A stretch of DNA of 4,389 nt from a virus (IMGVR_UViG_2531839666_000025:1-4389), one strand, 5' to 3'. Counted from the stretch's first letter, positions 1 to 4,389 are shown. The notes: generated by a model from the letters alone, not told the origin. A program made the numbers and translations.

Positions 1-673
1 TTATTCCTGTGCCCAGCCAACCCTGTATGCCAGGATCTCATCCGCACTGCTCAGCGATTCCAGGTCCTTCTTCATGGTGCGCTGGCGAATGTGGATTTCC
101 ATCCCTTTAGTGAACATCGCCTGCTCTGCCGCTTCACTCAGCGCAATAAGCTCTTCTGCTGTCACCGGCACATCATTGTTTTCCGCATCCGTCCAGAAAA
201 ACGCCTCCGGCAGTTTCCCCGCTTTCGCTGCCGCCACCGACGGCTCAAGACGCGTCTGCGTTGACTTCCCGTAGTCCCATTTACGCCCATTGTGCTCAAA
301 CGTGTAGTTCGCCGCTTCCATCTCATTACGCCAGGCGTTAATTTCATCGCCCTTCATCCCGCGCGCTTTCTCCGCGGTCAGCAGGTCCGTGATTTTCTCC
401 CCGTCAAAAACCCCAGCGCCCCGAGATGTCAGCTTTGCGGTTTTCTTCCGTATCCGCCACCTCCACCACACTCTGGCCCACTGGCCACAGAACTGACGCC
501 ACCCTGCCGATGCCGGTAATGACTCCGGCACTGTTATAAACCACCTTCAGCGTCTCTGCTGAAAATAACGACTGACACTCATACCAGTCCTGACCATCCT
601 CTGATTTCAGGTACATCGCACCCGGCACATCCGGATTTTCCGGCGTGTATTGTCTGAAATTCTTTATGTGCAT
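1..673 (-). pseudogene. tfa: Tail fibre assembly protein (P2 gpG / Tfa chaperone family), reading frame broken by a 1-nt indel; intact equivalent would be about 223 aa
   Basis: Two overlapping minus-strand ORFs (673..404, 89 aa; 531..1, 176 aa) together resemble one Tfa. The first matches my recollection of the P2 gpG N-terminal region (SEDGQDWYE...KVVYNSAG...SVVEVADTEENRKADISGRWGF). The second matches the conserved C-terminal region of the tfa at 2905..3495 (INAWRNEME...RLEP...FFWTDAENNDV...). ATG at 673 is preceded by GGGAGGA with an 8-nt spacer; stop at 1..3. Confidence 0.75.
406..414 (-). other. Homopolymer tract (plus CCCC/AAAAA, minus TTTTTGGGG) where the tfa-1 frame switches
   Basis: Minus strand reads TGG GGT TTT TGA (W G F stop) in the upstream frame and GTT TTT GAC GGG GAG AAA (V F D G E K) in the downstream frame. 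Removing one T from the T5 run gives a continuous ...GRWGFDGEKITDLL... matching P2 gpG ...GKWMFKDGAVV... as I recall it. Confidence 0.7.
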
Positions 674-714: not shown

Positions 715-2448
715 TTATAACGAAAAATACTCACGCCCCGGCGCTCCTGACGACACATACTCACCAACACCAACGGTGCGCCAGTGAGAGCCATCAAACG
801 TCATCTGCAGCGGCCTGTAGTAAATCGTTGTAACACGGCTGACGCCGCCCTGAGTGTTCCCCGAAAGCCCTGTAATGACTGAACCATCAGCCAGATTAAC
901 TGACCAGCCATGGTCCCCCTCCTGCAACTCATACGTTACCGGATTCCCCAGCCTGAAGCCCATGACACGACTCTTCCCGTCATCTCCTGATGCCCCCGGC
1001 GGCCCCATCGGCCCGGTTTCTCCACGCTCACCTCTGGGACCGGGGTCGCCTTTCTCCCCTTTCGGTCCCTGCGCTCCCCGCGGACCAGCGGGGCCTGTTG
1101 CTCCCGTTTCACCTTTCGGACCCTGTGCTCCGGGGTCGCCTTTCTCTCCTTTCGGACCGGGAACACCACCTCCTGCTGCAGCCTCTTCTGCCTTTGTTTT
1201 CGCTTCATTTGCCACATCCATTGCCGCCTTCACGGCCTTCGGCGTGGCTGCCTTTGTTTCGTCATTACTGCCAGTATCACTGCTTAACTGCACCACACCT
1301 TTCTGCGTCGTGCTGGCATCCCGCTGGCTGACCGTATCCGGTTTGTTTTTTGTGCTGTAATCCACCCGCCAGTGGAAATACTGTGTGTCGCCGTAAACCG
1401 TACAGGTACAGACCGTGCCATTAATAAACCCCGTTGCACCGTATTCGCCAATGGTGACCCGGACTATGGCAGCCTCATACGTCCCCATCACCTCAATGAC
1501 ACAGCCACCCAGATTGAGTTTTCCCGGTCCGACATCCGTGATGACTTTATTCATTGACGCAGGCAGTGATGCCTTCATCATCCAGTAAGGCTGGTCAAAT
1601 GCCCCTTTTTCTTTCAGCCAGGCGACAAACTCGCTCGTGGTCCATTCACCGGCCCCCGTATGAATGTCCCGCCCGTATACTCTGGCTGCTCCCACGGTGT
1701 TCAGAAACTTCACCTTATCCGGGATATCGTCACCGTTTTTCGCTTTCTCCAGGCATCCGTCCGCTTTGTCCATTGCCGCTTTCACCGCTTTCGGGGTGGC
1801 TGCCTTCGTTTCATCATCACTGTCCGTTGCGCTGCTTAACTGCACAATTCCCTTCTGTGCCGTCGTCGCATCCGGTCCTCCCGGCTCGCCTTTTTCGCCC
1901 TTCTCTCCCCGTTCACCTTTCACACCCTGAAGCCCCTGTGGTCCTGTCTCACCACGCTCACCCTTTGGCCCCCGCTCGCCGGTATCGCCTTTTGGCCCGG
2001 GAATACCCTGCGGCCCGGTGTCCCCCTTATCCCCCTTCGGTCCCCGCGCATTCTCTGCCCGTTTTTTTGCCTCCTCCGCACTGGCTGCGGACGCTTCCGC
2101 ACGTTTCAGGATTTCCGCTGCCACCGCTTCCAGCTCTGCAAGGGCTTTCGGGTAATACTGTGCGTCTTCCAGGTCCATCAGAAATTTATTCAGCGTTCCC
2201 GGTGCAGAATCCGCCTTCACCAGAATGTCACCCACATATGACGGCGCGTACCCTTCCGTGTTCAGCGTCACCCGGTACAACCCCGGCTCAACATCCATAC
2301 TGTAACTGCCGGTTTCCCCCGGCTGACCATACGCCACCGTGGTGACAATCACCGTCTCCGTTGTGCGGCGCGCTTTCAGCTCTATCGTGCATCCCGGTAC
2401 CGCTTTTCCCGTACCATCCTTCAGCACACCCGATATTCTGACTGTCAT
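715..2448 (-). CDS. stf: Side tail fibre protein, 577 aa: lambda Stf-like N-terminal domain, two collagen-like Gly-X-Y tracts, two tail-fibre repeat motifs, a central globular domain and a short C-terminal domain
   Basis: N-terminus [28 protein letters not shown] resembles lambda Stf [28 protein letters not shown] (from memory). Uninterrupted Gly-X-Y at aa 136-192 and 428-491. Motif [30 protein letters not shown] occurs twice (aa 196-228, 380-412). ATG at 2448..2446 preceded by GGGGGA; TAA at 717..715. Confidence 0.9.
976..1167 (-). repeat. Collagen-like Gly-X-Y coding tract 2 (about 21 triplets, stf aa 428-491)
   Basis: Translation [64 protein letters not shown] with Gly at every third position. 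The proline-rich plus-strand ORFs here are its antisense shadow. Confidence 0.9.
1213..1311 (-). repeat. Tail-fibre repeat motif, copy 2 (stf aa 380-412), a diverged direct repeat of 1765..1863
   Basis: [33 protein letters not shown]. At DNA level, ...ccattgccgccttcacggccttcggcgtggctgcctttgtttc... here parallels ...ccattgccgctttcaccgctttcggggtggctgccttcgtttc... in copy 1. Confidence 0.85.
1765..1863 (-). repeat. Tail-fibre repeat motif, copy 1 (stf aa 196-228)
   Basis: [33 protein letters not shown]; same motif as in lambda Stf ([28 protein letters not shown], from memory). Confidence 0.85.
1873..2043 (-). repeat. Collagen-like Gly-X-Y coding tract 1 (about 19 triplets, stf aa 136-192)
   Basis: Translation [57 protein letters not shown] with Gly at every third position. 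Confidence 0.9.
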
Positions 2449-2461: not shown

Positions 2462-2496
2462 AAAAAAACCGCAGTACCGGTTTCCCGGCCTGCGGT
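2462..2496 (-). terminator. Intrinsic (rho-independent) terminator, probable 3' end of the hok-like transcript
   Basis: Minus strand ACCGCAG-GCCGG-GAAA-CCGGuA-CUGCGGU followed by UUUUUUU: outer 7-bp stem, inner 4-bp CCGG/CCGG stem, GAAA tetraloop, then a T7 run. The T-tract ends 13 nt before the stf ATG. Confidence 0.7.
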
Positions 2497-2559
2497 AAAA
2501 TTTGTGGTTTGTTGGTGTTAAAACGGTGCCATCCGGCTGACCACCCTCAGCAACCGGTC

Positions 2560-2582
2560 GGCGGGGGATATTCTCCCCCGCC
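2560..2582. repeat. Perfect 9-bp GC-rich inverted repeat with a 5-nt loop, in the 3' untranslated region of the hok-like gene
   Basis: Plus strand GGCGGGGGA-TATTC-TCCCCCGCC (2560-2568 pairs with 2574-2582). No adjacent T-run on either strand, so it is more likely a structural or stability element than a terminator. Confidence 0.5.
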
Positions 2583-2590
2583 ACGGTTTC

Positions 2591-2731
2591 TTACTGCTTA
2601 CACTGTAAGAACGCCGCAATCTCCGCGCCCGCTATCCGGAACCGGAACTCGCACAGTGAACTGTGGGTGATCCAGATAATGAGCACTACCGTGATACAAA
2701 TCACGGTGGTTTTTAACGGTTTTTGCGACAT
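2591..2731 (-). CDS. hok: Hok/Gef-family type I toxin, 46 aa (small single-pass membrane peptide)
   Basis: Hand translation of the minus strand gives MSQKPLKTTVICITVVLIIWITHSSLCEFRFRIAGAEIAAFLQCKQ. It has a hydrophobic helix (TVICITVVLIIWIT) followed by the Hok hallmark SLCE..R.....E(I/V)AAF..(C/Y)K; compare R1 Hok ...[28 protein letters not shown], recalled from memory. ATG at 2731..2729 preceded by AAGGAG with a 9-nt spacer; TAA at 2593..2591. Not in the supplied ORF track. Confidence 0.8.
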   Translation of the reverse strand: MSQKPLKTTVICITVVLIIWITHSSLCEFRFRIAGAEIAAFLQCKQ

Positions 2732-2740
2732 AAACGCTTG

Positions 2741-2746
2741 CTCCTT
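2741..2746 (-). promoter_or_regulatory. Shine-Dalgarno sequence of hok (AAGGAG) with an adjacent anti-SD
   Basis: Minus strand CCUCUCC-GUAAAA-GGAG-CAAGCGUUU-AUG. The CUCC immediately upstream can pair with GGAG (plus-strand palindrome ctcc-ttttac-ggag, 2741..2754). Confidence 0.6.
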
Positions 2747-2876
2747 TTACGGAGAGGCGCTAACCTTTCACTTGCTTAGGATGAATGGTCAGGCCTCGGG
2801 TTAAACATGAATGTTTGTCCGGGGCCTTTTCACATCCGGCCTTCAGGTGTTCCCTCCGGCCATCAGCCAAAGGCAC

Positions 2877-2898
2877 CCGTGCATAATGTACGGTTTTT
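2877..2898 (+). terminator. Candidate plus-strand intrinsic terminator, possibly the 3' end of an antisense (Sok-like) RNA; speculative
   Basis: Plus strand CCGUGCA-UAA-UGUACGG (7-bp stem with one G-U pair, 3-nt loop) followed by UUUUUAUU. It lies antisense to the predicted hok leader, immediately beyond the tfa-2 stop. No convincing promoter found upstream. Confidence 0.3.
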
Positions 2899-2904
2899 AT
2901 TCTG

Positions 2905-3495
2905 TTACGTAAATACCGGCTCCTCACTCCCCCAGCCGGGCTGATAGCACAGTACATCACGGTATCGCGTCATCCCCGCAATCTCCTGTTTCATCTGTCG
3001 CTGTCTTTCGTGGATCCTGAAACCGTGCGCCACCATCGCCTGTTTCATGGCAACACCCAGCGCCTTCAGTTCATCAGCGTCTACCGCCACATCATGATTA
3101 TCCGCATCTGTCCAGAAAAAACGTTCCGGTAAATGTTCTGTCACTGCAAGCACGGGCTCCAGACGGCTCAGTGAGCGCTTACCTGCATCCCAGCGTCGCC
3201 CCTGCCATTCAAACACAATTTCTTTATTTTCTTCCTCATTTCTCCAGATGTTAATCCTGTCGCATGCCTTCTCTTTTTCCTTTTCCAGCATATCCTGACT
3301 TTCACGCCACGGTGTCACCGCTCCATACTGACCACCGGCAATGGCGGCAAACAGTTCACGCCATATCACATCGGGATCATGCGGCATCACAACGATATCC
3401 ATCCAGCACTCCCCCGACGGTAACTTCATTTCAGCATGAATGTTTCCGCTTTCGTCATACCTCGCATGACGGATTTCTGTAACGATCTCCGGCAC
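2905..3495 (-). CDS. tfa: Tail fibre assembly protein (Tfa chaperone family), 196 aa, apparently intact
   Basis: C-terminal two-thirds (DRINIWRNEEE...RLEPVLAVTEHLPERFFWTDADNHDVAVDADELKALG...) is paralogous to tfa-1; the N-terminal about 85 aa differs. GTG start at 3495..3493, 9 nt after the upstream stop, preceded by AAGGGGGG; TAA at 2907..2905. Confidence 0.88.
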   Translation of the reverse strand: MPEIVTEIRHARYDESGNIHAEMKLPSGECWMDIVVMPHDPDVIWRELFAAIAGGQYGAVTPWRESQDMLEKEKEKACDRINIWRNEEENKEIVFEWQGRRWDAGKRSLSRLEPVLAVTEHLPERFFWTDADNHDVAVDADELKALGVAMKQAMVAHGFRIHERQRQMKQEIAGMTRYRDVLCYQPGWGSEEPVFT

Positions 3496-3504
3496 AATCC
3501 CCCC

Positions 3505-4389
3505 TTAAAGCACATGAACCTTCTCATTTCCTGCCCGGAATAACGTGCCACCGTTACATAGAACGCTGATCGTCACGCGACAGTTATAATTCAGGGGGTT
3601 ATGAAAGGCGCGCACGTAACGATACCGGACATAAATCCGGTTGCGGTTTCCCCTCCCCTTTGCCGGAAGCGTGAATCTGTAAATCCAGTCATAATTTTCC
3701 CACACCTTATGCTTCAAATTCCCGGGCCCCCATTCTCCTGACGACCAGACAGTGGCAATTCCACCATCTGCACTATCAGTGCCGACACTGACTTCCCACC
3801 AGGCAGAAACAAGACCAGGATTGCCCTCAGCTCTGAAGGCTATCTTCATGTTAACATCAAAAAAACGATCGAAGTTTTCCCCGTCAACATTCAGAAAAGG
3901 GATCCATTCGTTATCTCTCTCCTTTACACCATCCCGTGAGCTGACACCACTGAACACAACTTTATTGATTTCAAACAGGGAGCGGTAATAAACATCGCCA
4001 AGAATATTACCGGCATCCACTGTTCCTTTAACGACGCAGTTTTCTGCAATGGTCACGTTATTCAGCGTGCCCGAGTTCGCACTGATATGTCCGCTGATGT
4101 CCGCATTACGGGCCGTCAGCCTGCCGTCCGGCGTCAGGGAGAACGTCGGGGGATTGCCGGACGAGGTGATGCTCACCGCAAACAACCGCTTCAGGAACAC
4201 ATCGTTCATGAACAGCTGATTCCCCTGCGCCACAAACAGCGGCGTGGTGTTGCCGTTCTCCGGGTTAATCATCGCGATACGGTCCGCCTGCAGCAGTATA
4301 TTGCTCAGGGGCTGGCCATCAGCATCCTCAATCCCCGCACCTATACCGGCAACATACGGAATGCCGTTTTTTGTTTCTGCACCTTCAGC
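3505..4389 (-). CDS. J: Host specificity / central tail fibre protein (lambda gpJ-like), C-terminal 294 codons; N-terminus lies beyond the window
   Basis: The frame is open from the window edge ([17 protein letters not shown]...) through the track ORF to TAA at 3507..3505. The segment [22 protein letters not shown]...[38 protein letters not shown] matches my recollection of lambda J ([18 protein letters not shown]...[41 protein letters not shown]). The last about 190 aa do not resemble the lambda J C-terminus. Confidence 0.8.

Follow-up and report, generated by a model that had tools for sequence, protein, structure and literature searches.

How is a hok toxin gene controlled when the leader reading frame that should couple its translation to the antisense RNA is missing? 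The standard textbook example of antisense control via a coupled leader open reading frame (ORF) is hok/mok/sok, and reviews as well as a 2022 saturation-mutagenesis study hold that mok translation is mandatory (PMC9841398; PMC4147584). The question is raised by a locus in IMGVR_UViG_2531839666_000025:1-4389, a stretch of viral DNA of 4,389 nt (the window), which encodes a Hok protein of 46 amino acids (aa). A preliminary description, made from the sequence alone, had noted a strong hok ribosome-binding site without a usable mok, and had suggested either that control has shifted to direct structural occlusion of the hok site or that a nonsense mutation in mok has left a silenced locus. We show that the locus is a variant of the known hok/sok system that lacks mok, and we consider it probable that it is an intact prophage hok/sok of a mok-less lineage in which hok translation is switched by RNA refolding, not by coupled leader translation.

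The argument begins at the hok start, where the following features were read on the minus strand, from the sequence.

2731..2591, minus strand: 46-aa Hok gene, ATG 2731..2729, stop TAA 2593..2591 (Pfam HOK_GEF)
2591..2731, minus strand: hok coding sequence MSQKPLKTTVICITVVLIIWITHSSLCEFRFRIAGAEIAAFLQCKQ, from Pfam HOK_GEF, ortholog annotation and a ratio of nonsynonymous to synonymous change (dN/dS) <1
2746..2741, minus strand: hok ribosome-binding site AAGGAG, followed by 9 nt (2740..2732) and then the ATG
2751..2760, minus strand: GCGCCUCUCC, comprising dcb (the GAGGCC partner) and the anti-Shine-Dalgarno sequence (anti-SD, the hok-site partner), from folds of three states and conserved in the clade
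2760..2762, minus strand: TAG read earlier as a mok nonsense codon, invariant in 57 leaders
2598..2759, minus strand: open -1 frame overlapping hok, without a usable start
2792..2797, minus strand: GAGGCC, homolog of the R1 mok ribosome-binding site by alignment with R1, hokB and hokC

What the preliminary description reported here is borne out, with one exception: AAGGAG 2746..2741 stands 9 nt ahead of ATG 2731, CUCC 2754..2751 is able to pair with GGAG 2744..2741 (4 bp, 6-nt loop GUAAAA), and the hok frame is closed by TAA 2749..2747, 18 nt 5' of the ATG. The -1 frame does have a TAG at 2762..2760 and an open run to TAA 2600..2598; the accompanying statement that no ATG or GTG follows the TAG does not hold, since GTG 2654..2652 does, as does TTG 2699..2697, but both lie far 3' of the hok ATG and are therefore unusable as a mok start. 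Calling this the frame typical of mok was also loose. In K-12 (L007, 352..561), RefSeq mokC (16751..16960) is in frame with hokC (16751..16903) and is thus an N-terminal extension of it, and since mokB and R1 mok instead occupy the -1 frame, the mok frame is not a family constant. Nor is a strong hok site unusual, as had been supposed. The same AAGGAG with 9 nt occurs in R1 hok and K-12 hokC, which makes it the family norm; hokB has AAGGAG with 7 nt, and most members of the window's clade have 8 nt between AAGGAG and ATG. The CUCC:GGAG hairpin folds at -5.2 kcal/mol (z=-3.5; 2/200 shuffles fold equally well) and extends into a hairpin over 2761..2733 of -11 kcal/mol (z=-1.85; 10/200 shuffles). 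By itself the 4-bp hairpin goes only weakly beyond chance, and its main support comes from its conservation among related leaders.

These leaders derive from 86 related loci (numbered L001 and so on), gathered from genomes and viral contigs by two-sequence alignment query, which yielded 57 distinct mRNAs; the clade counts below refer to them. For comparison, an R1 hok sequence, 100% identical to plasmid records, was aligned with K-12 hokB and hokC. In the window, all three frames are stopped between GAGGCC (2797..2792) and the hok site (UAA 2778, UGA 2770, UAG 2762, UAA 2749), and no ATG or GTG follows GAGGCC ahead of that site. Across the clade, the interval from GAGG to the TAG is hypervariable, is 31-34 nt long and comes in all three phases, with no ATG, GTG, TTG or near-cognate start conserved within it. 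No ATG/GTG/TTG ORF reaches the hok site in 30/57 leaders, and the remainder have scattered, unrelated ORFs. As a positive control, the same ORF scan detects mok in a HokA-like locus (ATG at -58, with the ribosome site GAGG ahead of it), and the R1 mok ATG lies at the same offset, -58. We also looked for orthologs with an intact mok and a canonical start, and found no conserved mok start in the clade. Judged from these comparisons, it is close to certain that the clade of 46-aa Hok proteins (MSQK...AAFLQCKQ) lacks mok throughout.

Candidate reading frames in the leader were rejected. The long -1 frame (2759..2598) has no start 5' of hok and ends after 27 codons in 30/57 sequences, and other upstream ORFs (AUG-UGA at 2836, ATG 2808, a GTG near the 5' end) are sporadic, unconserved and mostly without a ribosome site. 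A leader ORF is also absent from a sister Hok cluster, L097 (IMG/VR contig 2648501177_000008, 310..512; MSQNLLAIIVLC..., MSQNLL..., 48 aa), in which the hok site region lies within a different 8-bp hairpin (CUCUUUAC/GUAAAGAG); mok loss may predate the 46-aa clade and extend beyond it. No cluster-76 relatives were found in the viral contigs searched.

If mok is absent throughout, what is the TAG? Ortholog alignment refutes the nonsense mutation suggested earlier: the TAG is invariant in 57/57 leaders, it and the neighbouring AGGTTAGCGCCTC being invariant or nearly so, and a homologous TAG is present in R1 (GGATAGCC) and in hokB (CTTAGCC). The reading frame into which it falls is not fixed: counted against hok, 33 leaders have it in the hok frame, 22 (the window among them) in the -1 frame and 2 in the third frame, and a 1-nt indel in the site-to-ATG spacer (GCGTTTATG vs GCGTTATG) shifts it among near-identical loci. 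What the TAG does have in common across loci is its position opposite the predicted Sok promoter, where it complements the first two bases of the -10 box (TAACCT) plus an adjacent base; the complement of this box, AGGTTA, is itself invariant or nearly so. On this alignment evidence the TAG is a by-product of the predicted Sok -10 box and not a recent nonsense mutation.

The remaining RNA elements needed for the argument are listed here; mRNA ends, Sok ends and 3' processing were placed by analogy with R1.

2908..2913, minus strand: predicted hok promoter -35 box TTTACG (4/6 positions; 17 nt from the -10 box; overlaps the DUF4376 stop codon)
2885..2890, minus strand: predicted hok promoter -10 box TACATT, 6 nt ahead of G2878
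2462..2878, minus strand: predicted full-length hok mRNA, ~415 nt, from GGGUGCC to the terminator U-tract (Rfam match, fold)
2862..2878, minus strand: tac, the 5' end element, which in predicted folds pairs with fbi (full-length RNA) or ucb (3'-trimmed RNA)
2819..2829, minus strand: ucb, upstream complementary box AAAGGCCCCGG, which in predicted folds pairs with GAGGCC (closed) or tac (trimmed)
2754..2797, minus strand: Sok-target hairpin, -21.4 kcal/mol, with loop CCUAAGCAA fitting the YUNR (U-turn; pyrimidine-U-any-purine) motif
2559..2583, minus strand: GC-rich hairpin 3' of the hok stop, -21.9 kcal/mol, z=-4.5, conserved with compensatory variation
2525..2541, minus strand: fbi, fold-back inhibitory element (has GGCACC), partner of the 5' end (folds, covariation)
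2462..2496, minus strand: intrinsic terminator, a hairpin plus U7 just 5' of the tail-fibre start at 2448, conserved in close orthologs
2738..2766, plus strand: predicted Sok promoter, -35 TTGCTC (2738..2743), 17-nt spacer, -10 TAACCT (2761..2766)
2774..2830, plus strand: predicted Sok-like RNA, ~57 nt, with an 18-nt single-stranded 5' tail, a terminator hairpin and UUUU (ends placed by analogy)

By sequence, the window keeps, apart from the mok frame, the full R1 set of RNA elements: promoter, terminator, tac:fbi, ucb, GAGGCC, dcb, the Sok-target hairpin and a Sok gene. Rfam RF01794 matches 2878..2720 on the hok strand over the full model length (55 bits, E=1.2e-10; gathering score 59), other clade members scoring 35-46 bits vs 89-118 for R1, hokB and hokC. 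Scores are below threshold across the clade (35-55 bits in the window at 2720..2878 and in L003, L006, L013 and L050), and since all members score under 59, standard Rfam annotation misses the clade. The model carries the name 'sok antitoxin', yet what it matches is the hok leader in sense orientation. For the Sok-target hairpin z=-5.0, with 0/200 shuffles equally stable, and the terminator hairpin folds at -21.6 kcal/mol (z=-5.2). The GC-rich hairpin (2583..2559) is, by analogy with R1, likely the 3' end of the processed, active mRNA, being stable enough that it might halt a 3' exonuclease.

For Sok, what the sequence offers is a promoter, a terminator and complementarity to the leader. The promoter layout matches that of R1 (TTGCGC, 17 nt, TATCCT, boxes read from an R1-type record), and in the 933W type the -35 box is TTGACT. 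The RNA folds at -21.5 kcal/mol (z=-3.3), and its predicted length and position agree with annotated sokC (59 nt) and sokB (57 nt). A consensus promoter scan requiring >=9/12 positions listed neither the hok nor the Sok promoter, so both are predictions by homology; the R1 Sok promoter, as read from the same record, would likewise miss the 9/12 cut. In orthologs the hok -10 column reads TACAGT, TAAATT or TAGAAT, and the -35 box at equal distance is TTGCCG. On the plus strand, 2877..2893 (CCGTGCATAATGTACGG TTTTTATTCT) resembles a terminator, with a hairpin and a T-run, and shares bases with the hok -10 box and the start of hok transcription. It might halt transcripts that read through from Sok, or antisense transcription of another origin.

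The predicted folds give these elements two arrangements. In full-length RNA (2878..2463), tac pairs with fbi (2877..2862 with 2525..2541), ucb with GAGGCC, and GCGCCUCUCC with the hok site region. In trimmed RNA, tac pairs with ucb, GAGGCC pairs with 2760..2754 within the Sok-target hairpin, and 3 bp remain on the hok site. Opening AAGGAG in the window's RNA is predicted to cost 6.5 kcal/mol at full length, 3.1-4.8 kcal/mol after trimming (eight 3' ends tried) and 5.4-7.5 kcal/mol in trimmed RNA whose Sok target is blocked; when Sok itself was included in an explicit co-fold, the hok site again lay in that closed hairpin. Blocking the Sok target raised the cost of site opening in 23/23 clade representatives, by +1.1 to +4.8 kcal/mol, compared with +0.1, -1.0, +1.0 and +1.7 kcal/mol in the mok-containing controls R1, hokC, hokB and L098. 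The hok start region as a whole (-20..+13) opens at 8-15 kcal/mol in the clade vs 17-22.5 in mok-containing loci.

From these folds we propose the following model. The full-length mRNA would be locked, with tac on fbi, ucb on GAGGCC and GCGCCUCUCC on the hok site region in the hairpin of -11 kcal/mol. Trimming of the 3' end to the stable GC hairpin would liberate tac, which would capture ucb; GAGGCC and GCGCCUC would then pair, the anti-SD would be drawn off the hok site to leave 3 bp, and ribosomes could load directly on hok. Sok, on binding 2830..2774 (including GAGGCC), would liberate GCGCCUCUCC, which would return to the hok site, and RNase III would probably cut the Sok duplex as well. 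The former mok ribosome site would persist as an RNA pairing partner and not as a ribosome landing site; its proposed role would be that of an 'anti-anti-SD' holding the anti-SD off the hok site.

Covariation lends support to several of these pairings. For tac:fbi, three consecutive pairs have compensatory changes in 9-24 sequences each, columns 11-13 varying together with columns 412-414 (GC to CG in 23 sequences, GC to AU in 9, CG to GC in 21), and the upper Sok-target stem has many compensatory changes between columns 100-104 and 114-119. Over the structures, ~86% of cells are paired, vs 30-58% when the 3' partners are slid by 1-3 columns. Because a MAFFT misalignment by one column (CCCGAGG vs CCGAGG) obscured how often GAGGC is paired, this element was inspected directly. 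The inspection revealed a joint change in L050, L053 and L059 (ucb to GGUC, GAGGC to GAGAC, dcb to GUCUC) that keeps both GAGGC pairings while weakening the ribosome-site consensus; the alternative pairings of GAGGC, with ucb when closed and with dcb when open, are thus seen in the predicted folds and in this triple change. The pairings themselves are supported by predicted folds and covariation, and from them we infer that hok translation would be switched on and off. Direct occlusion of the hok site, the first of the two outcomes raised in the preliminary description, is the control favoured by modelling, in agreement with the folding results, the mok-containing controls and the triple compensatory change.

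The Sok-target stem itself is hypervariable (2765..2790 and the same columns in L018-L052), with at least four versions among loci encoding identical Hok (CAUUCAU/GUGAA, UUUCGAU/AUUGAA, GUUCUUC/GAAGAA and UUUCUUCU/GUGGAA), each with its own compensating changes. Sok specificity seems to have diversified in this way, so that cassettes, of which a genome may have matches in up to seven places, would not cross-react.

Several points weigh against refolding as the switch. The control L098, which has mok, rises by +1.7 kcal/mol on blocking, a value at the low end of the clade's range, so that clade and controls overlap, and no switch is predicted for the sister L097, which also lacks mok (6.0 vs 5.8). 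Each of the three predicted states has the hok AUG base-paired to 2620..2612. On the anti-SD:SD pairing covariation is neutral, its base pairs being either conserved or altered on one side only, with no two-sided changes. The energy differences are modest and thermodynamic prediction is unreliable for RNAs >300 nt, and the RNA ends, Sok expression and 3' processing rest on the R1 analogy. Finally, active R1 RNA also forms GAGG:dcb, yet it needs mok translation (PMC9841398). Weighed together with the folding and covariation results, refolding would still be the best explanation available.

One alternative is that degradation does all the work: RNase III would cut the Sok:mRNA duplex and the message decay, with no refolding and with constitutive translation of any trimmed mRNA. 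Sok pairs with 2830..2774, at least 28 nt 5' of the hok ribosome site, and is therefore unable to block that site directly; in R1, Sok duplexes are known to be cut by RNase III (PMC9841398; PMC4147584), and for L097 no switch is predicted. Set against this, R1 hok maintains its plasmid in an rnc mutant, for which reason a translation block has been deemed the main mechanism (PMC4147584). Against degradation alone stand also the conserved anti-SD beside the hok site, the preservation of both GAGGC pairings in the triple change, and the closed and open states predicted in 23/23 representatives, and we regard it as unlikely.

A second alternative keeps translation in the leader. Here a ribosome would start at a non-canonical codon after GAGG (AUU 2786..2784), read 8 codons to UAG 2762..2760, directly ahead of the anti-SD, open the hairpin and so pass translation on to hok. 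In the window's subtype this AUU does stand 7 nt after GAGG, an ideal spacing, in frame with the UAG; a ribosome halted at 2762..2760 would, given known footprints, mask 2759..2751, and R1 depends on translation reaching the hok site (PMC9841398). Against this, loci of the L021, L052 and L025 types, identical in Hok, have no start or near-cognate codon there, the 933W type has no such codon at all, the distance from GAGG to UAG occurs in all three phases, and L050 has GAGA for GAGG. We therefore consider a cryptic leader ORF improbable.

There remains the matter of whether the locus is alive. The 46-aa Hok matches Pfam HOK_GEF (PF01848; E=2.4e-11, 43.5 bits, cut-off 22) and falls below the NCBIfam cut-offs (HokA 38 vs 89, Hok 37 vs 73). 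The 46-codon hok is retained in 51/57 distinct sequences, from Escherichia, Salmonella and Citrobacter, with pairwise dN/dS of 0.15-0.58, a pattern that indicates purifying selection on Hok. In a 2026 preprint, 45 Hok homologs were assayed and 42/45 were toxic, with only three non-toxic; the toxic ones include 79_1563, identical to the Hok of the window but for Q46R, and 72_1589, of the 933W type. Purifying selection together with the reported toxicity of a one-residue variant argues that the locus is not a relic, contrary to the silencing suggested in the preliminary description. That the locus is a decaying passenger, its hok untranslatable once the TAG or some other change had removed mok, is very improbable: premature mok stops 5' of hok do abolish toxicity in R1 (PMC9841398) and a frameshifted neighbouring DUF4376 gene suggests that the window's prophage may be degenerating, but the TAG is ancestral and frame-independent, hok is intact and constrained across three genera, the RNA elements are all conserved with compensatory changes, near-identical peptides are toxic, and functional Shiga-toxin (Stx) phages, among them 933W and Sp5/VT2-Sakai, carry the cassette. 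Damaged copies exist as a small minority: L081 has a ~41-nt tandem duplication spanning the GC hairpin 3' of hok (~1360..1400), in L052 (1117..1221) an additional G throws hok into the -1 frame (...AGRGDCGVLTV*), and in L044 GTG replaces ATG and 20 nt are deleted from the 5' stem.

How does this mok-less hok/sok locus relate to the systems already known? Its toxin belongs to the same Pfam family as those of R1 hok/mok/sok (parB), hokB/mokB/sokB and hokC/mokC/sokC, and its mRNA shares with theirs the 5' GGGUGC paired to 3' GCACCC, ucb, GAGGC, dcb GCCUC, AAGGAG and the GC hairpin after the stop, along with the placement of Sok and a -10 box opposite (A/T)TAGC. Unlike them, the window's clade has neither a mok frame nor a conserved mok start, and it lacks the small hairpin that in those loci stands between dcb and the hok site. 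Because this hairpin is missing, the anti-SD abuts the hok site, and the Sok -35 box reaches into the site-to-ATG spacer. The hok start region of the clade is also predicted to be 5-10 kcal/mol easier to open than that of mok-containing loci.

The logic proposed here, in which there is no leader ORF and anti-SD sequences in alternative folds occlude the toxin's ribosome site, is that of the type I systems aapA/IsoA of Helicobacter pylori and bsrG/SR4 of Bacillus subtilis. In the latter, distant SR4 binding reportedly leads to a refolding that tightens occlusion (Jahn and Brantl, 2013). There is no sequence homology between these systems and the window, and their antisense RNAs overlap the coding region or the 3' end, whereas the window's predicted Sok binds the 5' leader, as in R1 and unlike IsoA or SR4. 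The contrast between aapA and hok has been drawn explicitly (PMC9841398).

Within Stx phages, the hokW-sokW cassette of Sakai prophage 5 is likewise a prophage-borne hok/sok (Takada et al. 2021, PMC8621323), and its study indicates that such cassettes can be functional type I systems aiding lysis after induction (PMC8621323). We considered whether the window's hok is the published hokW and rejected this: HokW is a 51-aa, HokC/D-like protein encoded elsewhere in the phage. The 46-aa hok beside lom or tail fibres is a separate, unnamed locus. In L005 (NC_029120.1, 1670..1810) the 46-aa hok beside lom is labelled 'MokW-like host killing', and in L006 (933W) it is unannotated; as hokW is a different, 51-aa gene, database naming of the 46-aa hok is inconsistent.

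No description of a mok-less hok lineage was found in the literature searched, older subscription papers being outside its coverage. The newest survey (2026), of 32,532 hok loci, left mok unanalysed since its prediction 'is not trivial', T1TAdb records leader ORFs only where these are described or annotated, and in an RNA-seq/Ribo-seq paper on enterohaemorrhagic E. coli there were only Rfam 'sok' matches and no clear entry for the 46-aa clade. Going beyond the window, we offer a wider proposal to which we give slightly less than even weight: that a large, mostly prophage-borne branch of hok/sok has dispensed with mok, has kept the GAGG site as an 'anti-anti-SD', is repressed by refolding alone, and is protected from cross-talk by its variable stems. 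If true, a mok-less lineage with the other RNA elements and an active toxin would mean that the leader ORF is dispensable, and would provide a natural system in which to separate refolding from ribosome-mediated unfolding. On the practical side, Rfam and NCBIfam thresholds miss the clade, and labels such as 'MokW-like' mislead. The cassette resides in Stx phages, where another hok locus is linked to phage release (PMC8621323), and matches to the locus occur in up to ~1/4 of complete E. coli genomes by megablast.

The genes around the locus place it in a prophage. The minus strand is the coding strand for every gene of the window.

4389..3505, minus strand: C-terminal part of a gpJ-type tail tip protein (Pfam Phage_Tail_Tip)
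3495..2905, minus strand: DUF4376 protein gene, upstream of hok
2448..715, minus strand: side tail fibre, 577 aa, with collagen repeats
673..1, minus strand: second DUF4376 gene, downstream

The cassette is an independent insert (a 'moron') among the tail genes of a lambdoid (lambda-like) E. coli prophage: it has its own terminator and a predicted promoter (8/12 positions), and it sits between the gpJ-type tail tip plus DUF4376 and the side tail fibre. In close orthologs, of which phage 1720a-02 is one example, gpJ and the side tail fibre gene flank the locus, which is labelled 'Hok/Gef family protein' (WP_000078852.1). Near-identical copies of the 511-nt region, over >=80% of the query, are present in 117 complete E. 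coli genomes by megablast; counting any match, short partial ones included, 1530/5426 complete E. coli genomes are hit, at up to 7 places per genome. The locus also matches 203 phage records, in majority Stx phages, and a paralog ~78% identical adjoins lom in 933W, VT2-Sakai and most Stx phages.

Homology with most orthologs (L001, L002 and L004 were compared) begins only at ~2898, upstream of which the DUF4376 gene replaces the end of gpJ. As the flanking DNA upstream of this point differs, the hok promoter -35 box differs by prophage (TTTACG here, TTGCCG there). In the downstream gene (673..1, minus strand), one extra homopolymer base at 406..410 splits the DUF4376 (tail-fibre-assembly-like) frame into two ORFs; on the plus strand the window has A5 vs A4 in the otherwise 97%-identical ortholog L001, the cause being either an error of sequencing or a true frameshift in a prophage that is decaying. 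Lastly, the side tail fibre (715..2448) contains two collagen-like Gly-X-Y stretches and two copies of a Phage_fiber_2 repeat flanking a central domain, an arrangement that suggests internal duplication of the fibre shaft.

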